A DNA stretch of 24,000 nt from an uncultured Candidatus Bathyarchaeia archaeon (GTDB lineage Archaea > Thermoproteota > Bathyarchaeia > 40CM-2-53-6). The stretch is taken from the NCBI GenBank assembly GCA_964549795.1, contig CAZJVZ010000003.1, positions 20,249 through 44,248 of the forward strand, in the 5' to 3' direction. A model generated the notes under the pieces. The model worked only from the letters and a program-made list of their open reading frames with translations, was not told the origin of the DNA and ran no database searches. The translations under genes and the position numbers were made by a program. Below, one piece after another: positions 353-21,688 of the stretch. Each line of letters starts with the position of its first letter. Within the stretch, counting starts at the first letter, position 1.

Positions 353-862
353 TCAAAGGTACATCGTGATGACTTTTCTCTTGACTAGGAAGTACATGAC
401 GATGACGCTCAGAATCAGTTCGACTATCAAGTACGACCCGTTGTAGATCGCCGAGTACAATATGGGATTCATTCCGGCAGGAGCATAGGTGGCGAAGAAC
501 ACAAATCCAGACACAAAGTGACTGGCAAACCTACCAGCAATCCCAACGACGACTCCTACGATCGGATGCCCCTTGAAGAATCCTGCAAGACCTAGGGCGC
601 CAAATGCAATCGGATAGTCCAGCAACAGCTGGGCCGGGTGCACAATGTAAGGTTGCGGGAACATATCCACCAGACCAAAGACAACCCCTCCCAAGATTCC
701 TACCTTCGGGCCTCTTCTCAGGGCCAACCATAAGATCGGAACCATGCTCACGGCAGTCACAGAGCCACCCTGAGGCAATCGGAATACCACCAGCAGATTC
801 AGAACGTATGCGAGAGCCACAGCAACAACTATCTCAGCAACGATCTTCGTCTTCATTCTCAT
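353..862 (-). CDS. thiT: thiamine transporter ThiT (ECF-type S component), polytopic membrane protein
   Basis: 169-aa hydrophobic protein with ThiT-like segments (QGGSVTAVSMVPILWLALRRG, HPAQLLLDYPIAFGALGLAG). It lies directly downstream of a TPP riboswitch on the same strand. A GAGGGG Shine-Dalgarno sits 8 nt before the ATG. Confidence 0.8.
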   Translation of the reverse strand: MRMKTKIVAEIVVAVALAYVLNLLVVFRLPQGGSVTAVSMVPILWLALRRGPKVGILGGVVFGLVDMFPQPYIVHPAQLLLDYPIAFGALGLAGFFKGHPIVGVVVGIAGRFASHFVSGFVFFATYAPAGMNPILYSAIYNGSYLIVELILSVIVMYFLVKRKVITMYL

Positions 863-894
863 TCAATCAACCCCTCAGGGGCCAGTTCTATCAA

Positions 895-991
895 CTGAGA
901 AGTCCCCTTCCTTCGCCAGCATTGTCTGGATCAGGTTCAAAGGGTCGACGGCTCCAGCCGTCCTCTCAGCCGGGTAGACCCAGCTCCCCAG
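895..991 (-). promoter_or_regulatory. TPP (THI-box) riboswitch aptamer controlling thiT
   Basis: The minus-strand RNA reads CUGGGGAGCUGGGUCUACCCGGCUGAGAGGACGGCUGGAGCCGUCGACCCUUUGAACCUGAUCCAGACAAUGCUGGCGAAGGAAGGGGACUUCUCAG. It contains the conserved CUGAGA and ACCCUUUGAACCUGAUCnnGnnAAUGCnnGCG cores. P1 is CUGGGGAG/CUUCUCAG, P2 GGGUC/GACCC, P3 GACGGC/GCCGUC, P4 CCU/AGG and P5 CCAG/CUGG. Confidence 0.85.
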
Positions 992-1012
992 CCTACTTGA
1001 CTGATGTCGACG

Positions 1013-1259: not shown

Positions 1260-2345
1260 ATGGCATCTGTTCCTTCACAAAGAGGCAAAGAAGCTGAACT
1301 GTATCAGCGGCTTCCTGCAGGAAGAGTGAGATGCACCGCCTGTGCTCGGTTCTGCAACATCCCAGATGGGAAGATAGGTTTCTGTGGGATTCGTGGGAAT
1401 CTCGGTGGGAAGCTGCACCTGTTCGCTTATGGAAGGATCACAGCGAGTCATGTGGACCCGATCGAGAAGAAGCCGCTTACTCATTACCTGCCGGGGACTA
1501 GGATCTTCTCGATCTCGACCAACGGCTGCAACTGGAGCTGTGCCTATTGCCAGAACTACGACATGAGTCAACGGAGAGTTGTGGAAGGAACCCACGTGAC
1601 GCCTGAGCAGATCGTGCGACTGACAAAGGAGTACGGATGTCAAGGCATCGCATACACCTACAACGAGCCGATGATATTTCTTGAGTTTGCTCGTGACATC
1701 GGGGTTCTGGCACGCAGAGATGGCCTCAAGAACGCTTTCGTGTCGAACGGGTATGCCACGCCGGAAGCGGTGCAGATCATGAGCAGTTTCCTCGACGCGA
1801 TAACTGTAGACTTCAAGGGCAGCGGGGAAACAAGCTTCCTTCGTCGCAACGTGGGCATCCCAGATGCTGGTCCGGTCTACGAGACACTGCTTGGGTTGAA
1901 GAATGCAAAGGTCCACATTGAGATCACGGATCTGATCGTCCCGACGATTGGTGACAGCCTACAGGAGGCGAGGAAGCTTTCCCGTTGGATCTACGAGAAT
2001 CTTGGCCCTGAGACCCCTGTACACTTCCTGAGATTCCACCCTGACTTCAAGTTGAGCCACCTGCCATGGACTTCGATCGAAACGCTTGAACGCCATCATG
2101 AAGTGGCCAAGGCTGAAGGACTGAAGTATGTCTACGTTGGCAACGCGCCCGGACACCCTCTCGAGAATACGTACTGCGCAGGATGCGGTGCGACAGTGGT
2201 GAAGCGGTACGGATTCGACATTACTGGGTGGTACATGGATAAGGACAACAATTGCCTGGCTTGTGGTGAGCATATCCCGATTGTGGGAGCGTTGTCTCAG
2301 TCGGCAAAAGACGATCGATTCTCCGCAGTTTCAATCCACGACTGA
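1260..2345 (+). CDS. AmmeMemoRadiSam system radical SAM enzyme (PFL-activase-like)
   Basis: Carries the CNWSCAYCQN radical SAM cluster motif, an N-terminal C-rich segment (RCTACARFCNIPDGKIGFCG), the HVDPIEKKPL motif and a C-terminal CAGCG...CLACG zinc ribbon. I prefer the ATG at 1260 (MASVPSQRG) over the ORF-track start at 1152, whose extra 36 aa look non-protein-like. Confidence 0.75.
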   Translation: MASVPSQRGKEAELYQRLPAGRVRCTACARFCNIPDGKIGFCGIRGNLGGKLHLFAYGRITASHVDPIEKKPLTHYLPGTRIFSISTNGCNWSCAYCQNYDMSQRRVVEGTHVTPEQIVRLTKEYGCQGIAYTYNEPMIFLEFARDIGVLARRDGLKNAFVSNGYATPEAVQIMSSFLDAITVDFKGSGETSFLRRNVGIPDAGPVYETLLGLKNAKVHIEITDLIVPTIGDSLQEARKLSRWIYENLGPETPVHFLRFHPDFKLSHLPWTSIETLERHHEVAKAEGLKYVYVGNAPGHPLENTYCAGCGATVVKRYGFDITGWYMDKDNNCLACGEHIPIVGALSQSAKDDRFSAVSIHD

Positions 2346-11962: not shown

Positions 11963-12217
11963 GTGCGAGTGATCGCTCTGACAGGACTCGTCGTCTTCGT
12001 CTGTCTTTCGGTGATTCTAGGAATCTTTGTCTTGGTCAGAGTGGTGATGTTCGTCCTGCCTTCGTCGCTCACAGAATTCAGAATTGTCACTGACGTTCTC
12101 AGGGTGGTTCTTGCCGTCGTGCTCGCGTACGCTTGGCTTCGCCTTTGGAAGATTATCACTGATTCATACTTCTGGCGGTCCATTGGTGCTGTCAAGATAG
12201 ACCAAGATGAGCCATGA
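11963..12217 (+). CDS. small hypothetical membrane protein (84 aa, two predicted TM helices)
   Basis: The GTG start lies 1 nt after the transferase stop (TAGTGTG), suggesting translational coupling. Two hydrophobic helices are visible. No recognisable family. The 3' end overlaps the convergent DUF354 gene by 26 nt. Confidence 0.4.
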   Translation: MRVIALTGLVVFVCLSVILGIFVLVRVVMFVLPSSLTEFRIVTDVLRVVLAVVLAYAWLRLWKIITDSYFWRSIGAVKIDQDEP

Positions 12218-13262
12218 CGAAGCTCACCGGGTCCTGCATTCTGGCCAGCACGCGATCAGCCTTCTCCTTCTGACGCTTGGCAATTCCGGGATCAGCTAGG
12301 AACTTGCGAACCCTACCCAAGACTCTCTCTGGAGTAAGCATCCTCTCTGCAAGTCCAAGCCTGAACAAGTATCTATCCACATAAGTTGGGTTGGATGGAA
12401 AGCAGCTGATCGTGGGGATTCCCATGAGTGCTGCTTCCGCGCTCATGGTTCCTCCTGCGCCGACGAAGGCCGAAGCTCGCGAGAGTAGGCCGATGGCATC
12501 AACGACACTGGCGGGAACGGCGGCAACATCCGAGAATTCCTTGGTGAGCGTCTCAACTTGCTTCTCGTATCGCGGCAACATCACGACTTGGGCACCAAGT
12601 CCAGCGAGCGGACGCGCCAAATGTGTGACAATGCTCCTCTGTGCCCCGGTCTGGATGAAATAGGAGGCGTATTCCTCTTCTGTCCGTAGCACAACGATAG
12701 GCTTCTCATCACGCAGCTCTAGCGCGCCTGTGAGATCAGCTCCGGGAGCGTACGCGCGGATCCAGGCGGCAGGGTCAAGAGCGTTGTACCGTGCGATGTC
12801 AGATGAGGTGATGCCGTATCGCTTCCACGCACTCTTGGGCACAGCTCTCGGGGTGAACAGTCTCTTTGACAAAGGAATTGCCAGCCTACAGACTGCTTCG
12901 GCGTGTGGGGAGTCGCAAAGAGCGTAGTGTGGAACCCGCAGTCCATATGCCACTCTCGCAGCCTCTGGCGAACAGAAGGAGATTGCCAGATCCAGCCGCT
13001 TGTCGACGACGAACTCCGCGAGCTCCCTGACTCTCTTGGAACTCTCCGTGAGTTTTGCTGCAAGGTCAGCGCCGCCGTGTCTTCCGATCGCAGTTGCGCT
13101 CGTGTTGCGTACTCGCAGCAGTTGCTCCACCTCCCTGTAGTGTCTAGTGGTGACAAGAGTCTCGTGTCCGCGCTCAGCCAGCCTTCGAACAAAGACGGAG
13201 AAGAGGTTCGCCTGTTTCGGAGTCAGCACATCGATCCAGATTCTCTTTGCAGCGTTGCCCAT
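12192..13262 (-). CDS. DUF354 family protein (archaeal, GT-B / UDP-GlcNAc 2-epimerase-like fold)
   Basis: The N-terminus KRIWIDVLTPKQANLFSVFVRRLAERGHETLVTTRHYREVEQLL resembles the DUF354 pattern as I recall it. Size is about 350 aa, with a C-terminal GGTMSAEAALMGIPTIS nucleotide-sugar-binding-like loop. Confidence 0.6.
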   Translation of the reverse strand: MGNAAKRIWIDVLTPKQANLFSVFVRRLAERGHETLVTTRHYREVEQLLRVRNTSATAIGRHGGADLAAKLTESSKRVRELAEFVVDKRLDLAISFCSPEAARVAYGLRVPHYALCDSPHAEAVCRLAIPLSKRLFTPRAVPKSAWKRYGITSSDIARYNALDPAAWIRAYAPGADLTGALELRDEKPIVVLRTEEEYASYFIQTGAQRSIVTHLARPLAGLGAQVVMLPRYEKQVETLTKEFSDVAAVPASVVDAIGLLSRASAFVGAGGTMSAEAALMGIPTISCFPSNPTYVDRYLFRLGLAERMLTPERVLGRVRKFLADPGIAKRQKEKADRVLARMQDPVSFVMAHLGLS

Positions 13263-13375
13263 CCGAGGTCCCCTATTGCGGTATCAGCCACATCGTCGTG
13301 ATTGTTCGATTCCAAGCTAAGGAGCAGCAGCCCTAAATACGCCTTCCATTCGAGCGTACGTTTTGGTGTTTCTGA

Positions 13376-14758
13376 GTGGCGCCCTCCGAACTCATGACAA
13401 TGGACCCGCGCGATATCCCAGCGAGACTGAGACGCGGCCTGCTAACCGTTGAGATGGTCGGACTTGGATGGATGGGCTTGCCCCTGGCATGTCTCTTCTC
13501 TGAGGCTGGCGCCCGAGTCATCGGAGCAGACCAGAACTCGTCTCTGGTCAAGGCGATCAACTCCGGGAAGTCGCCGATCAAGGAGGAAGGCCTACCAGAA
13601 CTTGTCAGGAAGGTCGTTGGCTCAGGCAAGTTGGTCGCGACCGCAGACACGGAGGACGCCTCATCGAAGAGCGACATAATCGCAATCATGGTGCCGACAC
13701 TGATCGACCGGCACAAGAAACCATACTACCAACACGTGGAGGAGGCATGTGTTGAGATCGGCAAGGGGATTCGCTCTGGATCACTTGTGCTCTTCCAGAG
13801 TACATGCGGGCCTGGCGTTACCGACAGAGTCGTCAAGGCAACGATCGAGAAACACTCTGGACTCAAAGCCGGAAATGATTTCGGACTTGCATACAGCCCC
13901 ATTAGGGCAATGGGAGGTCAAGGACTGACCGACATGCGAAAATACGCAAGGGCTGTGGGCGCCATTGACAAGAGAAGCCTAGACGTGACGGTCGCAGTAC
14001 TTTCATGCATCGTTGATGGGCAGCTGATCAGAATGCGAGACATACCTACTGCTGAGGCTTCGAAGCTGTTCGAGACAGTATACAGAGACGTCGTCATAGC
14101 ACTTTCTAACGAGTTCGCAATCTTCTGCGAGGAAGCAAGAATCGACTATCTTCAGGCAATGATGGCAGCCAATTCTCAGCCTTACTCCCACCTGCTCTTG
14201 CCTGGGGCCGGCGTAGGAGGACACTGCCTTCCCGTCTATCCCTATCTTCTCGCAGCTGAAGCAGACAGCACGAAACTGAGAATCCCCATGGATTCGCGTC
14301 GTACCAACGATCAGATGCCCAGTCACGTTGTAAGACTCGCCACCGAGGGCCTGAGAATCTGTGGCAAGAGTGTGAAGAGGTCAAGGTTCACGGTGCTCGG
14401 CATCGCGTATCGCCCGAACGTGAAGGAGACTAGGTTCTCACCTTCAATCGAGCTTATCAGCCTACTGAGAAGGCGGGGGAGTAGAGTTTCTGTGTATGAT
14501 CCCTTGTACGCCCCAGAAGAACTCAAGCATATGGGCTACCACGCGGAGCCGACGTTGCCGGGCGCGTTAGAGAGAGCAGACTGTGCAGTTCTGGCAGTGG
14601 CTCACGATGAGTTCAGATCGATCAAGGCCATTGACCTGGCTGCCAACATGTCAAAGAACTCTGTCGTCGTCGACTGCACAGGAACCCTTGAACCGCAAGA
14701 CATAGAAAAGGTAGGCCTCACCTACAGAGGCATCGGGAGAGGACTCTGGTCCAAGTGA
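13376..14758 (+). CDS. nucleotide-sugar dehydrogenase, UDP-ManNAc dehydrogenase (WecC)-like
   Basis: Rossmann motif VGLGWMGLPLACLFSEAGARVIGAD, catalytic GVGGHCLPVYPY, and a C-terminal UDP-binding domain (VLGIAYRPNVKETRFSP). The start is uncertain: GTG 13376, ATG 13394 or ATG 13400. Confidence 0.8.
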   Translation: MAPSELMTMDPRDIPARLRRGLLTVEMVGLGWMGLPLACLFSEAGARVIGADQNSSLVKAINSGKSPIKEEGLPELVRKVVGSGKLVATADTEDASSKSDIIAIMVPTLIDRHKKPYYQHVEEACVEIGKGIRSGSLVLFQSTCGPGVTDRVVKATIEKHSGLKAGNDFGLAYSPIRAMGGQGLTDMRKYARAVGAIDKRSLDVTVAVLSCIVDGQLIRMRDIPTAEASKLFETVYRDVVIALSNEFAIFCEEARIDYLQAMMAANSQPYSHLLLPGAGVGGHCLPVYPYLLAAEADSTKLRIPMDSRRTNDQMPSHVVRLATEGLRICGKSVKRSRFTVLGIAYRPNVKETRFSPSIELISLLRRRGSRVSVYDPLYAPEELKHMGYHAEPTLPGALERADCAVLAVAHDEFRSIKAIDLAANMSKNSVVVDCTGTLEPQDIEKVGLTYRGIGRGLWSK

Positions 14759-14823: not shown

Positions 14824-15093
14824 TTGAAGAAGAGACTGATGGACATACTCGCATGCCCAATTGACAAGACGTATCCACTGGGCCTTCACGTCTTCGAAGA
14901 GGGCGAGGAGATCGTCTCGGGCATCATACTATGCCCAAAGTGCAACCGATGGTATCCTATAATCGATGAGATCCCACACATGTTGCCTGACGACCTGAGA
15001 GAAGAGAAGGAAGATGTGGCTTTCCTTCGGAAATGGAAGGAAAAGATCCCGCCCAGTACGCTCACTGAAGGCCGCCCCTTCAAGCTCACATGA
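14824..15093 (+). CDS. Trm112 family protein (methyltransferase activator-like zinc-ribbon fold)
   Basis: LMDILACPIDK...LCPKCNRWYPIIDEIPHMLPDD matches the Trm112/UPF0434 pattern. The first CxxC is degenerate (one Cys only). TTG start, with ATG at 14839 as the alternative. Confidence 0.7.
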   Translation: MKKRLMDILACPIDKTYPLGLHVFEEGEEIVSGIILCPKCNRWYPIIDEIPHMLPDDLREEKEDVAFLRKWKEKIPPSTLTEGRPFKLT

Positions 15094-15115
15094 TACATCT
15101 CGCGGAAATGAAGGA

Positions 15116-15121
15116 TTTATA
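15116..15121 (+). promoter_or_regulatory. putative TATA box for the tRNA-Gln gene
   Basis: TTTATA preceded by the purine-rich GAAATGAAGGA (BRE-like). It lies 41 nt upstream of tRNA position 1, which implies a short 5' leader of about 15-20 nt. Confidence 0.5.
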
Positions 15122-15171
15122 GCAACGGTGAGGACTCGGGGTAGCTCGGCCCGGAGCTTACAGCCCGGTGG

Positions 15172-15193
15172 AGGAGCCTGATACTCCGCCGAA
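15172..15193 (+). other. tRNA intron 1 (22 nt, between tRNA positions 10 and 11)
   Basis: The central 4-bp helix pairs C5G6G7U8 (15166-15169) with GCCG (15188-15191). The 3-nt bulges are GGA (15170-15172) and AAU (15192-15194). The inner helix is GGAG (15173-15176) / CUCC (15184-15187). The outer helix is weak, so this is a relaxed BHB. Confidence 0.65.
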
Positions 15194-15205
15194 TGTAGTG
15201 GACAA

Positions 15206-15226
15206 AGGAACACTCATTCCGTCTAG
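15206..15226 (+). other. tRNA intron 2 (21 nt, between last D-loop nucleotide and position 22)
   Basis: The central helix is GGAC (15200-15203) / GUCU (15221-15224), with bulge AAA (15204-15206). The inner helix is GGAA (15207-15210) / UUCC (15217-15220). The 3' site lies in AGG (15225-15227). The outer helix is not stacked, so this is also a relaxed BHB. Confidence 0.6.
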
Positions 15227-15242
15227 GCATAGCGGGCTTTGG

Positions 15243-15262
15243 TTCTCTTCCGATGAGAAGAA
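15243..15262 (+). other. tRNA intron 3 (20 nt, canonical position 37/38)
   Basis: Canonical hBHBh' motif. The anticodon stem forms the outer helix. The central helix pairs C32U33U34U35 (15237-15240) with GAAG (15257-15260). The bulges are GGU (15241-15243) and AAA (15261-15263), closed by a short inner hairpin. Confidence 0.8.
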
Positions 15263-15283
15263 ACCCGCCGACGGGAGTTCGAA

Positions 15284-15306
15284 AGGCTCGTGCACGAGCC
15301 CGAGAA
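15284..15306 (+). other. tRNA intron 4 (23 nt, T-loop position 59/60)
   Basis: Perfect hBHBh' motif. The T stem forms the outer helix. The central helix is UUCG (15278-15281) / CGAG (15301-15304). The bulges are AAA (15282-15284) and AAU (15305-15307). The inner helix is GGCUCG (15285-15290) / CGAGCC (15295-15300) with a UGCA loop. Confidence 0.85.
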
Positions 15307-15411
15307 TCTCCCCCGGGCTACCATTCTACAACGTCAAGCAACACCACCCAGTATCCTGCGTCACCTGTGGGCGATTCCACCCGCATAGGCCCGCACTATC
15401 TCAGGACGAAA

Positions 15412-16188
15412 TCACAATTGCTGAGCTCCACACGATCCGCAGAATCTGTCATCTGCGAGCATAGTGGTTCCACAGTACATGCAGTATTTCACGCTAGGGG
15501 AAAGTGGAGGTGGCCTCGTCTCCAACTTGAATGGAGAAGACGCAAGCGCGGCTCTCCTGAACCTGAAGAAGATCACCCATCCTGCCGCGATGATTATGCT
15601 AGCGATCATGATCGCATTCAAAGCCTGAGCAGCAACTAGCGCATAGTCGAATGCCGTGTGCAGCATGGTTGCGAGACCTAGGCCTGCGAGGCCCGAAACA
15701 CGTCCAGTCCCGAGTTTCTGGCGGGCCAAGTAGTATCCGATGATTGATCCCCAAAGCGCATGCCCCGGAACTGAGAGGACAGCTCGCACGATCCCCAAGA
15801 ACGCTCCTCGACTCAACACATATATCAGATTCTCAGGCGCTGCGAACCCCAACCCAGCTATTGCACCATACACCAGACCGTCCATCAGCTCATTGAACTC
15901 GCGTGACTTGTACACCGAAAGCCGGACCGCCAGTAACTTGGATGACTCTTCCACGAACGCCACGACAATCAAGAAATGAAGGAACAGCGCGAGTGGGTCA
16001 CTCGATGCCGGGAGAAACAAGCTTCCGACTGCTTCGGCGAAGATCACTGGGACGACAAGGATTGCGCCCAGTACGAAAGTCTTCACGATCAGCCTGCGCG
16101 GTTCCCGCTCATACCGATCTCTAGTGTACACGTACCAAGCGAGAAACACGATTGGAGCAATCGCGATGACGACGAGCCCAAGGTCCAT
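15412..16188 (-). CDS. PrsW family intramembrane metalloprotease with C-terminal zinc-ribbon
   Basis: Polytopic membrane protein with YVYTRDRYEREP, FVEESSKLLAV and HALWG/HTAFD PrsW-type motifs. The C-terminal tail YCMYCGTTMLADDRFCGSCG is a CxxC...CxxC zinc ribbon. Confidence 0.75.
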   Translation of the reverse strand: MDLGLVVIAIAPIVFLAWYVYTRDRYEREPRRLIVKTFVLGAILVVPVIFAEAVGSLFLPASSDPLALFLHFLIVVAFVEESSKLLAVRLSVYKSREFNELMDGLVYGAIAGLGFAAPENLIYVLSRGAFLGIVRAVLSVPGHALWGSIIGYYLARQKLGTGRVSGLAGLGLATMLHTAFDYALVAAQALNAIMIASIIIAAGWVIFFRFRRAALASSPFKLETRPPPLSPSVKYCMYCGTTMLADDRFCGSCGAQQL

Positions 16189-16433: not shown

Positions 16434-16634
16434 ATGGTTTGGAAATATATCGAAGTCGTCGGAGAATCGTCCGAAAGCTTCGCCGATGCGGTCCGAGAAG
16501 CCGTAGAAGAGGCAACAAAGACCGTACGCGGGATGGAGTGGTTCGAAGTGACTTCCCTGCGAGGAAGAATCACGAAAGACAAGGTTGGACTGTTTCAGGT
16601 AGCCGTGAAGATAGGCTTCAAGGTGGAACGATAG
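16434..16634 (+). CDS. dodecin family flavin-binding protein (66 aa)
   Basis: MVWKYIEVVGESSESFADAVREAVEEATKTVRGMEWFEVTSLRGRI...FQVAVKIGFKVE matches the dodecin pattern. GAGGTG lies 6 nt upstream of the ATG at 16434, supporting this start over 16401. Confidence 0.8.
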   Translation: MVWKYIEVVGESSESFADAVREAVEEATKTVRGMEWFEVTSLRGRITKDKVGLFQVAVKIGFKVER

Positions 16635-16650
16635 AACTAGGTGCCGCTTG

Positions 16651-17628
16651 ATGAAAGCGCCTCCCGAGATGATCCTCCCGACCGCACAAGATGTGAAGCG
16701 AGCCGCGAAGATGATACAAGGCATTGCCTACAGAACCCCATTGCATAGGAGCGAGCATCTCAGCCGCCGATTCGACGCAAACGTGTTTCTGAAATTGGAA
16801 TGCTACCAGCCGATTCGAGTCTTCAAGATACGCGGTGCCACAAACAAGATGCTGCACCTTGACGACATTCAGAGTCACGGCGTCGTCGCAGTTTCCTCCG
16901 GCAACCATGGCCTCGCTGTGGCATACATTGCCAGGCTTCTCGGAACGAATGCAACGATTGTTGTGCCCACGTCTGCCGTAGCTGAGAAAGTGGCTGCTAT
17001 AAAGGAACAAGGTGCGACCGTGATAGAACATGGACGAAGCCATGCCGAAAGACACGCTCGAGGTCTGCAGATACAGAAGGAACAGGGAGCGTTTCTTGTT
17101 CACCCGTTTGATGACCCAGATATCATAGCAGGTCAGGGAACAATAGGCTTGGAAATCCTAGAAGACCTGCCAGATGTTGACACGGTTCTTGTTCCAGTTG
17201 GCGGGGGCGGACTCATCGCAGGAATCTCGCTCGCCGTGAAGGCAGAGAAGCCAGACATCAAGGTGTACGGTGTCCAATCCGAAAGAGCCCCGTCGATGTA
17301 TGAATCAATCAAAGCTGGGAAGCCAATCAGGTTGGACGACTCCACCACTATCGCGGATGGCCTTGCTCCTGGAGAACCAGGGCAACTTACATTCCGCATC
17401 ACAAGGGAACAGGTAGACAGAATCCTATTGACATCAGAGGACGACATTCGATCGGCAACTAGAATGGCCCTTGAGTCACTCCACGTGCTCGTGGAACCAT
17501 CAGCCGCCGCAGTCGTAGCTGCGCTTCGTCACAGCTACCGTCCGAGAAAAGGAGAGAATCTCGTGCTGGTCATCAGCGGCGGGAACATCTCACTTAGACT
17601 GCTTCGAGACCTACTCAACAGCAACTAG
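16651..17628 (+). CDS. PLP-dependent threonine/serine dehydratase (TdcB/IlvA catalytic-domain type, no ACT domain)
   Basis: PLP-lysine motif LKLECYQPIRVFKIRGATNK, the SSGNHG motif and the glycine loop VPVGGGGLIAGI. Length is about 325 aa. Confidence 0.85.
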   Translation: MKAPPEMILPTAQDVKRAAKMIQGIAYRTPLHRSEHLSRRFDANVFLKLECYQPIRVFKIRGATNKMLHLDDIQSHGVVAVSSGNHGLAVAYIARLLGTNATIVVPTSAVAEKVAAIKEQGATVIEHGRSHAERHARGLQIQKEQGAFLVHPFDDPDIIAGQGTIGLEILEDLPDVDTVLVPVGGGGLIAGISLAVKAEKPDIKVYGVQSERAPSMYESIKAGKPIRLDDSTTIADGLAPGEPGQLTFRITREQVDRILLTSEDDIRSATRMALESLHVLVEPSAAAVVAALRHSYRPRKGENLVLVISGGNISLRLLRDLLNSN

Positions 17629-17709
17629 ACCGAGCGGTCGCCCAACAGAAAACGCTATCATACGACAGGTCAGCATCTAGCCTCTCCTGACAACCAGGAG
17701 AGACATGAG

Positions 17710-18120
17710 ATGGTCTTCACAGTTGACATTCCTGTTAGGTGGGTGGACACAGACGCGCTTCGAGTCGTCCACTACTCAAACTACTTCAGATACGTTGAGG
17801 CAGCAGAGGAGGAACTCTATCTTTCTCTCGGTTTCACTTTCAAGGAACTGAATGAGAGACACAAGATAGCCATTCCGAGAGTGGAGGCCTTCTGCAGCTT
17901 CAAGGCTCCGGCAAGATTCGGGGACATTGTGACTGTAACGCTACGGGTGGACGATAGGACAGAAAAGACGATGAAGTACAGCTTCAAGATCCATAGGAAG
18001 TCTGATAGCGAATCGCTCTGTACGGGCTATCTGAAGATCATCGGGCTCGACCTCGTTGACTGGAAAGCAACAGCGCTCCCTCCCGACATCATGGATAGGG
18101 TGGAGAAGGCGCTCGAATAG
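17710..18120 (+). CDS. acyl-CoA thioesterase, hotdog fold (YbgC/4HBT family)
   Basis: VRWVDTDALRVVHYSNYFRYVEAAEEELYLSLGF is the 4HBT-type catalytic Asp region. The 136-aa size is typical. GGAGAG lies upstream of the ATG. Confidence 0.8.
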   Translation: MVFTVDIPVRWVDTDALRVVHYSNYFRYVEAAEEELYLSLGFTFKELNERHKIAIPRVEAFCSFKAPARFGDIVTVTLRVDDRTEKTMKYSFKIHRKSDSESLCTGYLKIIGLDLVDWKATALPPDIMDRVEKALE

Positions 18121-18171
18121 GAATCCCCGCAAAGAAAGGACGAAGCTGTCGGAGATAGCAGGGTTGCTGAG

Positions 18172-19764
18172 CTAGGCTGCCTTCGCCGCCTCTGGTCTCG
18201 CGGTTCTTCTGTAGAAGTCATCGCTGAGCTTACGGCCTGTTCTCTTCTCCCACTCCGGGATCGGTGTCCCATACTGTTTCTGGATCTTGTCCTTGTACCA
18301 CTCTGGTATCACGTTGAAGGCGCAGAACGGGACTATCCGCTCGTCTGGGGTCGCATAGTGGATCGCGCAGCGTTTGACTCGCTCGATGTCGTAGTTGTAG
18401 AGATCTTGGAAGTGCATCAAACCGATGAAGAGGCTGTTGTGATGAAGTACACCCAGCGTTTTGTAGTCGTGTTTGAGGAGCGATTCGAAAAGAATCCTCG
18501 ACAGGTTGAGCCCCTTAGGCGCCTTGCTCTTGTCGATGAACTTCGTGAAGAGATTATAGAGCAAACCAATGCCGACCGCGTACTTGTTGGAACCGCTTCT
18601 CAGATCGCTCGCTTTCTCATCCAGGTACTCGAAGAGACCATCCACGTCCAGGAAGCGAGGCATCGGAATGATCTTCTCGCCGTCCAAGAACAGGTATGTT
18701 GCCATTCCGCAAGCGAAGTGTGTCGAAAGCTCGTACTCTCGCTCTCTTGTCAGAGCCTCAACAAAGTTGCTGAAGGGCATACACGACGGGATCGGATAGA
18801 AGTCATCTCGCGATATCTCCCCCGGGAACCTCTGTTCTATCCTATCTATGACATCCGGAATCGTGATTCTGAGGCGTTCTCTCTCGCGCTCCGGGACCCT
18901 TCCGACAATCGAGATTGGTTGAAAGTTGACACCCCTGATCGGGTCGAGGTTCTTCAGCGCAAACCGGATGATGTTTCCGACGTCAGAATCATTGACGCCC
19001 TTGATGACTGTTGGAACTAGGACTACGCCTACCCTGGCTCGGCTGCAGTTTGCGAGGGCTCCAGGTATCTCTCGGTGGTTCTTCGGATTCTTCTCGAGTG
19101 TCGTGCCGTCGTAGCTCATGTAGATCGTGTTGACGCCTGCCTTCCTCACTCTCTCTGCGAGCGTGGGATCGTTGGAGAGTCTAATACCGTCTGTATTGAG
19201 CTGGACATGGTCGATTCCTTCCTCCCTGCAGATCTGTACTATGTCCAGAAGATCCTCGCGAAGAGTCGGTTCCCCACCTGTCAACTGAACAGCATTGCAG
19301 GGTACCGGTTTCTCATTCGTCAACGAGCGAGCCATTGACCGTATCTGGTCTAGAGTGGGTTCGTACACGTATCCGGCTTTCTCAGCGAAGAAGAAGCAGT
19401 ACCAGCAATTGAGGTCGCACCTGTTTGTCAGAACAATGTTCCCAAGCGCCGTGTGGCTCGTGTGCAGATTACAGAGACCGCAATCGGCTGGGCATGTGGG
19501 CGTCTGCTTGGTAACAAATGGGTTGCTGACTCCCTTTCCATCCCGTGCGTATTTCTGCGCTCGCCTGTAGAGATCGCTGGAACCCCAGTACAGTTCGTTG
19601 AATTCTCCGTGATTCTTGCAGCTCTTGCGGATCCAGACTTTTCCTCCCTGTTCGTATATCTCTGCATCCAATACTGCGAGGCATTCAGGGCAGAGACTCT
19701 GTGTACGGCTCAGCGTGGTCGCAGGCTGAACGTGATAAGATGGCTCAGTGGCAGCTTCGACCAA
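18172..19764 (-). CDS. radical SAM protein of the MJ0619/COG1964 type, candidate tetraether lipid synthase (Tes / GDGT-MAS family)
   Basis: N-terminal CPEC...CKNHG rubredoxin-like knuckle and radical SAM motif NRCDLNCWYCFF. Also VQLTGGEPTLREDLLDIV, HVQLNTDGIRL and about 250 aa of C-terminal domain. TTG start preceded by GGAGGG. The functional assignment is by family resemblance only. Confidence 0.6.
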   Translation of the reverse strand: MVEAATEPSYHVQPATTLSRTQSLCPECLAVLDAEIYEQGGKVWIRKSCKNHGEFNELYWGSSDLYRRAQKYARDGKGVSNPFVTKQTPTCPADCGLCNLHTSHTALGNIVLTNRCDLNCWYCFFFAEKAGYVYEPTLDQIRSMARSLTNEKPVPCNAVQLTGGEPTLREDLLDIVQICREEGIDHVQLNTDGIRLSNDPTLAERVRKAGVNTIYMSYDGTTLEKNPKNHREIPGALANCSRARVGVVLVPTVIKGVNDSDVGNIIRFALKNLDPIRGVNFQPISIVGRVPERERERLRITIPDVIDRIEQRFPGEISRDDFYPIPSCMPFSNFVEALTREREYELSTHFACGMATYLFLDGEKIIPMPRFLDVDGLFEYLDEKASDLRSGSNKYAVGIGLLYNLFTKFIDKSKAPKGLNLSRILFESLLKHDYKTLGVLHHNSLFIGLMHFQDLYNYDIERVKRCAIHYATPDERIVPFCAFNVIPEWYKDKIQKQYGTPIPEWEKRTGRKLSDDFYRRTARPEAAKAA

Positions 19765-19800
19765 GTTCGGGCTCTCCCTCCGAGCAGGTTGCTCTTGTAC

Positions 19801-19806
19801 TATTTA
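19801..19806 (-). promoter_or_regulatory. putative TATA box for the Tes-like gene
   Basis: The minus strand reads TAAATA about 37 nt upstream of the TTG start. Confidence 0.3.
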
Positions 19807-19845
19807 CCCGTTCTGGATTACACCCGGATCTGCCAACGAGGCACG

Positions 19846-19853
19846 TTTTTATC
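19846..19853 (+). promoter_or_regulatory. putative TATA box for the PIN-ATPase gene
   Basis: TTTTTATC lies 30-37 nt upstream of the ATG at 19883, implying a near-leaderless mRNA. Confidence 0.4.
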
Positions 19854-19882
19854 ACAAGGAGACTGCTGCTACGCCGATCAAG

Positions 19883-21688
19883 ATGCCAACACCGGAGCGC
19901 CTCGTCCCCGATACTTCAGCACTAATTGCTGGGCGAATATCGGAGATTCTGGGCAGGGAAGAGATCGCTGAAGTAATCATACCATATGCCGTGCTAGACG
20001 AACTGCAGGCACAGGCGTCGAAGGGCAGGGATGTGGGCCACACTGGTCTAGCCGAGCTGAAGAAACTGCGGGCTCTCTGCGAGAGCAAGAACACGAAGCT
20101 CACCTATGTTGGGTCTAGGCCGGATCTTGAGCAGATCAAACTGGCAAGGAGCGGCAGACTAGATGCAATAATCACGGACGTTGCCCGAAAGGAGAATGCA
20201 ACCTTGGTCACCAATGACTACGTTCAAGCACTCGTCGCAGAAGTACAGGGCATCAAGGTGCTCTACGCAGCACGCCAAGTGAAGACTGAGGGCTTGATCT
20301 TTGAGAACCTCTTCACACCGGAGACAGCGAGCATCCACGTCAAGGAAGGAACCCTGCCTCTCGCGAAACGAGGCAAGCCAGGGAATTTCGAACTCGTCAG
20401 GATATCGGATCGAATCACAACAAGCGAAGACCTTGAGCAGATGATCAAACAGATCAATGACGCGGCACATGTGAGCGACGAGGGATTCGTTGAGATCAGC
20501 CGCGTCGGTGCCTCAGTAATACAGCTCGGAAGATACCGTATCGCAATCACTAGACCGCCGTTCTCAGATGGCTTGGAAGTTACGATTGTGAGACCAGTCG
20601 TCTCGCTTCGCTTGGAGGATTACAAGCTTTCCGAGCGACTGATGGAGAGGCTGAAGTCGAAAGCCGAAGGGATCCTCATTGCAGGACCGCCGGGATCAGG
20701 CAAGACGACCTTCGCATCGTCACTTGCCGAATTCTACCTGAAGCAGAATCAGATCGTGAAAACCCTTGAGTCACCGCGCGACCTCCAAGTAAGCCCCGAG
20801 ATCACCCAGTATGGCCCGCTGGAAGGGGATTTTGAGAATACCGCCGAGATCCTGTTGCTGGTGAGACCCGACTATACGGTCTTCGATGAAGTAAGGAAGA
20901 CCAAGGACTTCCAGGTCTTTGCCGACATGCGCTTGGCTGGAGTGGGCATGATTGGGGTCGTACACGCGACCGACGCAATAGATGCGGCACAGAGATTCAT
21001 AGGACGCGTCGAGCTAGGCATGATCCCTCACATCATCGACACAATCATCTATGTCCGGTATGGAGAAGTCGTCAACGTATTCTGTCTCAACCTAATCGTG
21101 CGGGTCCCAAGTGGCATGACAGAGGCTGACCTTGCACGCCCAATTGTGGAGGTCAAGGACTTCGAGACCGGGAAACTAGAATATGAAATGTACACGTTCG
21201 GCGAGGAGAATGTCATAGTGCCTGTTACTGAGACGGCGCCCCAGGTGTCCGGAGCTCGCAAACTCGCCGCTGAAAGAGTCCTGCAGGAGATACGCCGCTT
21301 CGACCCAGATGCCGAGGTGACCTTTGTCTCAGACAACAAAGCCATCCTGAGGGTGGACAGCGAGGCAATACCCCTTCTGATAGGCAAGAAAGGAGCCACG
21401 ATCACCAAGCTCGAGAAGTCGCTAGGCATCCGCATTGATGTGGAGCCTGCGACACCGACAGGAGGAGCCGAAGTCCGGTTCAAGACAATAGAGGTAGGAA
21501 ATAGAATTGAGCTCGAGTTCGACAAGAGGCACGTCGGCGAAGTCGCGAATGTATATGTTGACAACGAATTCGTCTTTTCAGCCACGATCGGAAAGAAGAG
21601 CCAGATCCGCGTCTCAAAGGATTCCGATCTTGGAAAGACCCTGCTTCGCGCCATGGTTGGCAAGAAGACAATGAAGATCCTCGTCTAG
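19883..21688 (+). CDS. PIN domain + PilT-like ATPase + KH domain protein (COG1855, PINA-type)
   Basis: N-terminal PIN (LVPDTSALIAGRI...IITDVARKENATLVTNDYVQ), Walker A GPPGSGKTT, Walker B-like TVFDEVR and C-terminal KH (LIGKKGATITKLEKSLGIRIDV). The ATG at 19883 avoids the ORF-track extension that would overlap the divergent gene. Its TAG stop shares CTAG with the convergent gene stop. Confidence 0.8.
   Translation: MPTPERLVPDTSALIAGRISEILGREEIAEVIIPYAVLDELQAQASKGRDVGHTGLAELKKLRALCESKNTKLTYVGSRPDLEQIKLARSGRLDAIITDVARKENATLVTNDYVQALVAEVQGIKVLYAARQVKTEGLIFENLFTPETASIHVKEGTLPLAKRGKPGNFELVRISDRITTSEDLEQMIKQINDAAHVSDEGFVEISRVGASVIQLGRYRIAITRPPFSDGLEVTIVRPVVSLRLEDYKLSERLMERLKSKAEGILIAGPPGSGKTTFASSLAEFYLKQNQIVKTLESPRDLQVSPEITQYGPLEGDFENTAEILLLVRPDYTVFDEVRKTKDFQVFADMRLAGVGMIGVVHATDAIDAAQRFIGRVELGMIPHIIDTIIYVRYGEVVNVFCLNLIVRVPSGMTEADLARPIVEVKDFETGKLEYEMYTFGEENVIVPVTETAPQVSGARKLAAERVLQEIRRFDPDAEVTFVSDNKAILRVDSEAIPLLIGKKGATITKLEKSLGIRIDVEPATPTGGAEVRFKTIEVGNRIELEFDKRHVGEVANVYVDNEFVFSATIGKKSQIRVSKDSDLGKTLLRAMVGKKTMKILV

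Follow-up and report, generated by a model that had tools for sequence, protein, structure and literature searches.

A stretch of 24,000 nucleotides (nt) from contig CAZJVZ010000003.1 of an uncultured Candidatus Bathyarchaeia archaeon, termed here the window, very probably contains a genuine, selected tRNA-Gln(UUG) gene split by four introns at 15162-15323 on the forward strand. The gene lies in a 318-nt spacer between the genes for a Trm112-like protein and a PrsW-family protease, a spacer in which no gene was annotated in 6 of 6 assemblies. Joining the five exons (10+12+16+21+17 nt) gives a 76-nt sequence with an encoded CCA, AGCCCGGTGGTGTAGTGGACAAGCATAGCGGGCTTTGGACCCGCCGACGGGAGTTCGAATCTCCCCCGGGCTACCA, which ARAGORN identified as tRNA-Gln(ttg) with a full cloverleaf. 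The A1:U72 pair, an identity feature of archaeal tRNA-Gln, was seen directly in the spliced sequence. A D loop of 9 nt and a variable loop of 4 nt place the intron junctions at 10/11, 21/22, 37/38 and 59/60 in Sprinzl numbering.

Without splicing the gene escaped detection. No tRNA was called by ARAGORN in the unspliced DNA of the window or in eight related unspliced loci, and Rfam searches of the unspliced locus returned no tRNA at the gathering threshold or at E<=10, the sole match at E<=10 being a meaningless small RNA on the opposite strand. The gene had been proposed in an earlier note on this DNA, the coordinates, exon and intron sequences and lengths of which (introns of 22, 21, 20 and 23 nt, together 86 of 162 nt) proved exact on re-checking. 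The 76-nt tRNA-Gln(UUG) cloverleaf drawn there was borne out by ARAGORN, one of the tests that note had suggested, which called the joined exons and not the unspliced DNA.

Contigs in JGI, ENA and Logan assemblies, which cover several samples, matched the window at 99.9% identity or more, and six independent assemblies, made from at least five samples, have an identical tRNA locus. Six same-species contigs retrieved through the PrsW gene, at least 99.9% identical to the window, carried no comparative information.

Bulge-helix-bulge motifs at the four introns

Each junction was examined for the bulge-helix-bulge motif (BHB), defined as a 4-bp helix between two 3-nt bulges, closed by an exon-side helix (h) and an intron-side helix (h') (PMC7714728), in the register in which each cut falls after bulge nucleotide 2. 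In this exact register the central helix was completely paired (4/4) at all four introns, with the bulges GG|A / AA|U, AA|A / AG|G, GG|U / AA|A and AA|A / AA|U at introns 1 to 4. The strict hBHBh' motif, in which each flanking helix has at least two Watson-Crick pairs, was formed by introns 3 and 4, introns 1 and 2 being of the relaxed type. This is as the earlier note had described them, with weak outer helices at introns 1 and 2 (1 and 0 bp, against 5 and 5 bp at introns 3 and 4). In 100,000 shuffles per intron, a 4/4 central helix together with an inner helix of at least 2 bp arose in 0.35%, 0.10%, 0.22% and 0.54% of cases for introns 1 to 4. The product of these four rates, ~4e-11, upholds the same note's view that four such coincidences are improbable by chance.

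Of the four junctions only that of intron 4 was ambiguous by sequence, owing to a GAA repeat, and it was fixed at 59/60 by the BHB. The inner helix of intron 3 extends to 4 bp in BHB register in the ortholog L038, which supports the register assigned to this intron. The four motifs occupy separate stretches without overlap, and thus no intron requires the earlier removal of another; formation of the D stem requires the removal of both introns 1 and 2. In folding predictions the BHB of intron 2 was the minimum free energy (MFE) structure of the local sequence and that of intron 4 was near the MFE (-18.7 versus -20.2 kcal/mol). Folding without the leader gave an MFE structure that contained only portions of the BHBs.

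Introns 1 and 2 also resemble each other (AGGAGCCTGATACTCCGCCGAA and AGGAACACTCATTCCGTCTAG, ~60% identical by eye), a likeness that hints that the lineage-specific 21/22 intron may derive by duplication or transposition from the ancient 10/11 intron.

Table 1. Features of the tRNA-Gln(UUG) locus, in window coordinates, with the composition of each BHB.
Feature	Position	Strand	Details
Trm112-like gene	14824-15093	+	
Assigned promoter	15108-15123	+	ATGAAGGATTTATAGC; purine-rich BRE-like stretch and TATA box, TTTATA at 15116-15121
Leader copy GGCCCGG	15148-15154	+	7 nt upstream of +1; proposed pairing with 3' acceptor strand CCGGGC(U)
Exon 1	15162-15171	+	tRNA nt 1-10, AGCCCGGTGG; invariant among five orthologs
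Intron 1	15172-15193	+	22 nt, 10/11; relaxed BHB; central C5-U8 with GCCG, 4/4; inner GGAG/CUCC, 4 bp; outer 1 bp
Exon 2	15194-15205	+	tRNA nt 11-21, TGTAGTGGACAA; includes extra D-loop positions 20a and 20b
Intron 2	15206-15226	+	21 nt, 21/22; relaxed BHB; central GGAC/GUCU, 4/4; inner GGAA/UUCC, 4 bp; outer 0 bp
Exon 3	15227-15242	+	tRNA nt 22-37; anticodon TTG at 15239-15241
Intron 3	15243-15262	+	20 nt, canonical 37/38; strict hBHBh'; central CUUU/GAAG, 4/4; inner 2 bp; outer 5 bp (anticodon stem)
Exon 4	15263-15283	+	tRNA nt 38-59
Intron 4	15284-15306	+	23 nt, 59/60 in the T loop; strict hBHBh'; central UUCG/CGAG, 4/4; inner 6 bp; outer 5 bp (T stem)
Exon 5	15307-15323	+	tRNA nt 60-73 and CCA (15321-15323); discriminator A at 15320
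PrsW-family protease gene	15412-16188	-	

Orthologs, conservation and promoter

Four metagenome-assembled genomes (MAGs; L017, L038, L044 and L092) carry a tRNA-Gln gene with the same four introns at the same position between Trm112 and PrsW, and their flanking proteins are 72-91% identical to those of the window. The closest named relative is the Candidatus Bathyarchaeia MAG L092 (PrsW 83%, Trm112 91%, a radical-SAM protein 91% and a PALP enzyme 84% identical at the protein level). In the five-way alignment of the window with these loci, none of the 76 exon columns was variable. Within the introns, substitutions were found in 8 of 52 paired positions, 4 of 12 bulge positions and 23 of 25 loop positions (paired versus loop columns, Fisher p = 7e-11), and in the spacers they affected 51 of 75 upstream columns and 22 of 22 downstream. 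All substitutions in intron 2 fell within its 6-nt loop and none in its helices.

When the BHB structure was imposed on this alignment, 95.6% of the cells paired, as compared with 41-56% when the partners were slid by 1-3 columns. One change was fully compensatory (C:G to U:A in the inner helix of intron 4), and two one-sided changes retained pairing; the central helix of intron 4 showed a U:G to U:A change. A shuffle control on the pair count was uninformative (200/500) because the helices are almost invariant, and the signal is carried by the slide control and by the placement of substitutions. The relaxed constraint expected of a tRNA pseudogene was not what the exons (0/76), loops (23/25) and downstream spacer (22/22) displayed. 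At the level of sequence, these data support purifying selection on the tRNA-Gln gene in four other species at the syntenic site.

One block of the upstream spacer, ATGAAGGWTTTATAGC (15108-15123), was conserved in the five four-intron orthologs and was assigned as a promoter with a TFB-recognition element (BRE) and TATA box. From the usual archaeal TATA-to-start spacing, transcription would be expected to begin near 15145-15148. A second block, TCGGGGTAG (15135-15147), was invariant in the same five orthologs. It includes GGTAGCTCGG, which is complementary, with one G-U pair, to the tRNA 3' end CCGGGCTACC. This block may lie upstream of the transcription start, and either an RNA element or a promoter element is possible.

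More distant relatives were sought by a scan, with each GTDB species represented by one genome, for 5' halves of tRNA-Gln with an insert at 10/11. The scan listed at least 120 loci, about a dozen of them chance matches in bacteria, and the counts that follow, in this section and those below, are among the loci listed. Parsing with a spliced-alignment script followed by BHB refinement gave 106 tRNA-Gln genes, 107 with the window, and ARAGORN called the in-silico spliced product as tRNA-Gln in all but two (L049 and L059), for which the automatic parse failed. The 10/11 intron is thus common to at least 107 tRNA-Gln genes of Nitrososphaeria, Bathyarchaeia, Hadarchaeota, Methanomethylicia and Brockarchaeota, with exactly one UUG and one CUG tRNA-Gln gene, each bearing it, in several MAGs. 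It occurs in 96 different versions, 14-31 nt long, among which there are 44 distinct inner-helix strands. In 99% of these the central helix was paired at 4/4. Shifting the register left a mean of ~1/4 pairs for most shifts (0.26-2.92, never 4/4), and the 3'-strand variants GCUG, ACCG, AUCG and GUCG all still pair with CGGU.

A single intron was present in 77 of the 107 genes, two introns in 16, three in 6 and four in 8, the window included. The class of two includes L059 of a Hadarchaeota MAG (2177-2321, minus strand), in which a manual parse gave three introns, at 10/11, 37/38 and, with 30 nt, 53/54. All four-intron genes are from Bathyarchaeia and fall into three layouts. Layout A, with introns at 10/11, 21/22, 37/38 and 59/60, is that of the window, L017, L038, L044 and L092; layout B (L075 and L098) has them at 10/11, about 24/25, 37/38 and 53/54; and layout C (L026, anticodon CUG) at 10/11, 29/30, 37/38 and 53/54. 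The 21/22 and 59/60 introns were confined to the Bathyarchaeia subgroup of the window. Two truncated genes were grouped with the four-intron set, L085, in which the fourth intron begins, and L014, with three introns before the contig end. The four-intron state is therefore not unique to the window, being found in at least seven further complete and two truncated genes of Bathyarchaeia MAGs, and four-intron tRNA-Gln sequences were already present in public MAGs.

A DUF354 gene, a Trm112 gene or both lay within a few kb of the tRNA-Gln gene in many Nitrososphaeria and Bathyarchaeia loci (L007-L126), a deep synteny that supports the orthology of these genes. MAGs labelled Deltaproteobacteria or Acidiferrales also contained archaeal intron-containing tRNA-Gln genes, and a 530-nt contig labelled Bathyarchaeota contained a Nitrososphaeraceae-type one; these taxonomically misplaced genes (L113, L116 and L080) probably reflect binning contamination.

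Metagenomes were further scanned for exon 1-2-3 junctions without introns. Three fully uninterrupted tRNA-Gln genes with exactly the predicted mature sequence were recovered, all from other organisms, with G+C (GC) contents of 45%, 45% and 30% versus 55% in the window, unrelated flanks and different samples. (Ten matches in viral contigs were considered as intron-less controls; three proved usable, the remaining seven being chance hits in non-archaeal sequence.) One intron-less gene, L129, scored 61.5 bits on the Rfam tRNA model RF00005 (gathering score 29) and has UDPG-dehydrogenase and Trm112 neighbours, which makes it effectively an empty-site ortholog. In one-intron Bathyarchaeia genes such as L025, exons 2-5 are contiguous and identical to those of the window. 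Since the intron-less and one-intron genes share the mature sequence, the exon/intron boundaries are independently confirmed, and with them the four junctions given in the earlier note. In the samples that contain the strain of the window, the metagenome scan turned up no intron-free copy, which is weak evidence against a second copy.

The leader copy of the acceptor strand

The sequence GCCCGG, which equals acceptor nucleotides 2-7, was present within 40 nt upstream of the tRNA in 103 of the 107 genes with the 10/11 intron, mostly ending 1-3 nt before +1. The background frequency was 0.24% of 40-nt windows, and downstream the sequence was found in 0/103. Three of the four exceptions were single C-to-U variants (GCUCGG twice, GCCUGG once) still able to pair with CCGGGC through G-U, and the fourth, GCCCGUGG, differed by a one-nucleotide insertion. 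Outside this copy the leaders were unrelated to each other. The copy was absent from six intron-less tRNA-Gln genes that share this acceptor sequence and represent about four independent lineages.

The central helix of intron 1 uses acceptor nucleotides 5-8 and thus competes with the acceptor stem. The predicted probability of this helix averaged 0.80 when the native leader was included, 0.03 when the leader was omitted and 0.23 when it was shuffled; native leaders gave a higher value than shuffled ones in 94 of 100 genes (Wilcoxon p = 1e-17). In folds that included the native leader, its copy of the acceptor strand was paired with the 3' acceptor strand at a mean probability of 0.96. In the window, adding the leader lifted the predicted probability from 0.20 to 0.93-0.97 for the central helix of intron 1 and from 0.31 to 0.81-0.84 for that of intron 2. 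In the model suggested by these predictions, the leader copy would act as an "anti-acceptor" that sequesters the 3' acceptor strand and frees nucleotides 5-8 for the intron 1 BHB. We consider the chances of this function to be evenly balanced.

Two other roles for the leader copy were considered and rejected. As the true 5' end of the tRNA, followed by a fifth intron, it would give a product without nucleotides 8-10 or with a C or U start opposite U72; as part of a BHB for leader removal, it offered no fitting BHB geometry.

Maturation, rival explanations and known systems

In the proposed pathway, the gene would be transcribed from the conserved BRE/TATA promoter and each intron would fold locally into its own BHB. 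A broad-specificity EndA, most likely of the (alpha-beta)2 type of TACK (Thaumarchaeota, Aigarchaeota, Crenarchaeota and Korarchaeota) archaea, would cut after nucleotide 2 of each 3-nt bulge, and an RtcB-type ligase would join the five exons as in the established archaeal pathway. The D stem would form once introns 1 and 2 were both gone. As suggested by co-occurrence and the folding predictions, the leader copy would probably hold the 3' acceptor strand so that the intron 1 helix could form, and the leader would then be taken off by RNase P. The lack of an outer helix at introns 1 and 2 means that the endonuclease must be of the broad-specificity type. Non-canonical introns are cut only by (alpha-beta)2 and epsilon2 EndA (PMC5829648), and the (alpha-beta)2 enzyme of TACK archaea accepts relaxed BHBs (PMC7714728; PMC5829648). 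This form has been reported mainly in TACK archaea, Bathyarchaeota among them (PMC7714728).

Several observations weigh against a functional gene matured in this way. Transcription, and splicing at all four junctions, are deduced from sequence. No EndA or RtcB gene was found within the ~45 kb of this genome that was covered, and given this coverage a second tRNA-Gln(UUG) copy may lie elsewhere in the genome. By nearest-neighbour energies, the BHB of intron 1 was predicted at -4.2 kcal/mol versus -14.9 kcal/mol for a slipped 8-bp helix, and that of intron 3 at -7.4 kcal/mol versus -13.9 kcal/mol for a competing shifted hairpin, the predicted probability of the intron 3 central helix being ~0; protein binding would thus have to capture these disfavoured conformers. 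At intron 1 the 5' splice site lies within a GGA|GGA tandem repeat (15169-15176), and the first intron nucleotide is A in 93 of the 96 orthologous 10/11 introns, so that slippage of the 3-nt bulge is possible and the BHB faces competition from an 8-bp helix that has no bulge. The five close orthologs supplied only one fully compensatory pair, and comparative support therefore comes mostly from where substitutions fall. Finally, after in-silico splicing, two-dimensional folding still preferred the leader copy (probability 0.86) to the true acceptor (0.10), so that return to the cloverleaf and cleavage by RNase P would need tertiary structure, an ordered pathway or other factors.

It is very unlikely that a former tRNA-Gln is decaying here into a pseudogene through insertions, in a genome where a separate, intact tRNA-Gln(UUG) does the work. 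Such a history would account for the failure of ARAGORN and Rfam to recognise the locus, would fit the intron-free genes with identical mature sequence found in metagenomes, and is left room by the ~45-kb coverage and the inferred expression. The intron-free genes, however, belong to other organisms (GC 30-45% versus 55%), and the locus is orthologous, by synteny, to the only tRNA-Gln(UUG) gene of its relatives. A decaying gene is also hard to reconcile with exons that are 100% identical in five species while the flanking proteins are 9-28% different and the downstream spacer varies at 22 of 22 positions, with inserts that retain their helices and change in their loops, or with the conserved promoter. 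A real gene in which not all four segments are cut by a BHB endonuclease, introns 1 and 2 being removed by another route or inefficiently with little mature tRNA, is a shade less likely again. Outer helices of only 1 and 0 bp at these introns, and an intron 1 BHB conformer predicted to be far less stable than the slipped helix, speak for it. Set against them are the 4/4 central helix in 99% of the 96 distinct 10/11 introns despite 44 inner-helix sequences, the 3'-strand variants that all keep pairing with CGGU, the intron 2 BHB as local MFE structure, and the standing of relaxed motifs as standard substrates of (alpha-beta)2 and epsilon2 EndA (PMC5829648, PMC7714728). Chance resemblance or an assembly artefact is regarded as refuted by the joint shuffle probability of ~4e-11, a sequence that does not differ between six independent assemblies of at least five samples, and the same architecture in four other MAGs.

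A four-intron tRNA-Gln(UUG) gene thus remains by far the best explanation of the locus. The broader claim is more tentative, its prospects falling slightly short of even. It holds that in Bathyarchaeia tRNA-Gln genes four introns are spliced by proteins, with three or more layouts of independent origin, the highest count documented for any tRNA gene in any domain, and that the ancient 10/11 intron depends on a hitherto undescribed anti-acceptor leader element that would have co-evolved with it across Nitrososphaeria, Bathyarchaeia, Hadarchaeota, Methanomethylicia and Brockarchaeota.

Other features were noted on the contig. At 891-1000 (minus strand) of the window a thiamine pyrophosphate (TPP) riboswitch (Rfam RF00059, 60.3 bits, E = 9e-10), the sole Rfam match at the gathering threshold, lies directly upstream of a Thia_YuaJ thiamine-transporter gene (353-862, minus strand). 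A longer version of the same contig (L140) adds 10 kb beyond the window start. In its coordinates, genes of the wyosine pathway (a radical-SAM Wyosine_form protein and a TYW2/Trm5-type methyltransferase) lie near the window at 12179-13746. A eukaryote-like ubiquitin cluster at 16486-20261, ~6-10 kb beyond the window start, consists of consecutive genes for a ThiF-type E1, a UQ_con E2, a JAB deubiquitinase and a ubiquitin-fold protein. Of two gaps in the extra 10 kb, that of 387 nt upstream of the Wyosine_form gene appeared by eye to be the unannotated N-terminus of that gene, with a CxxxCxxC motif; in the other no tRNA was seen by eye, no general multi-intron tRNA finder having been applied.

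The maximum number of introns in a tRNA gene is given as three in the tRNAscan-SE 2.0 paper (PMC8450103) and as "up to three introns" by Kanai 2015 (PMC4390854), and the figure of three given in the earlier note agrees with both. Literature searches found no report of four- or five-intron tRNAs and no description of Bathyarchaeia tRNA introns, their coverage being incomplete and an earlier report possible; a search for a leader element of this kind found no description. The window gene, over half of which is intron, would raise the known limit of tRNA gene fragmentation from three introns to four and extend intron-rich tRNAs to Bathyarchaeia, an abundant uncultured lineage of sediment and soil. 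Because ARAGORN and the Rfam tRNA model miss the gene, MAG completeness estimates and tRNA inventories of these archaea are probably understated. Orthologs that share an identical mature sequence and have 0, 1, 2, 3 or 4 introns offer a natural series in which to study BHB intron gain, and the leader anti-acceptor, if functional, would be a new kind of cis-acting splicing helper where a BHB competes with a tRNA stem.

BHB-intron tRNA genes as such are known, and what differs here is the intron count, the lineage and the leader element. Multiple-intron tRNA genes of Thermoproteales, for example of Pyrobaculum and Thermofilum, were described by Sugahara et al. (2007/2008), as cited in PMC4390854 and PMC8450103. 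Like the window gene, they have introns with strict or relaxed BHBs removed by a broad-specificity (alpha-beta)2 endonuclease and are missed by standard finders, but their published maximum is three introns rather than four and the lineage here is Bathyarchaeia. The non-canonical tRNA introns of Thaumarchaeota/Nitrososphaeria, for which tRNAscan-SE 2.0 has a clade-specific BHB model, include an orthologous 10/11 intron with the same position, central helix and AGG...GCCGAA ends and with DUF354 and/or Trm112 neighbours; their tRNA-Gln genes among those parsed here, however, have one to three introns.

In the red alga Cyanidioschyzon merolae (PMC3728597), one nuclear tRNA gene can likewise be interrupted by several BHB introns, with sites in the D arm and T loop and at 37/38, and their stepwise removal was shown by reverse transcription PCR. 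The alga is a eukaryote with at most three introns per gene and with some genes permuted, whereas the Bathyarchaeia gene is unpermuted. In the split or permuted archaeal tRNA genes of Nanoarchaeum, Caldivirga and Thermofilum (PMC3218864, PMC4090602), RNA-RNA pairing that involves leader and trailer sequences similarly presents a BHB to the endonuclease. Here, by contrast, the five exons are colinear in one transcript, and the leader element lies outside the BHB and is proposed to sequester the 3' acceptor strand.

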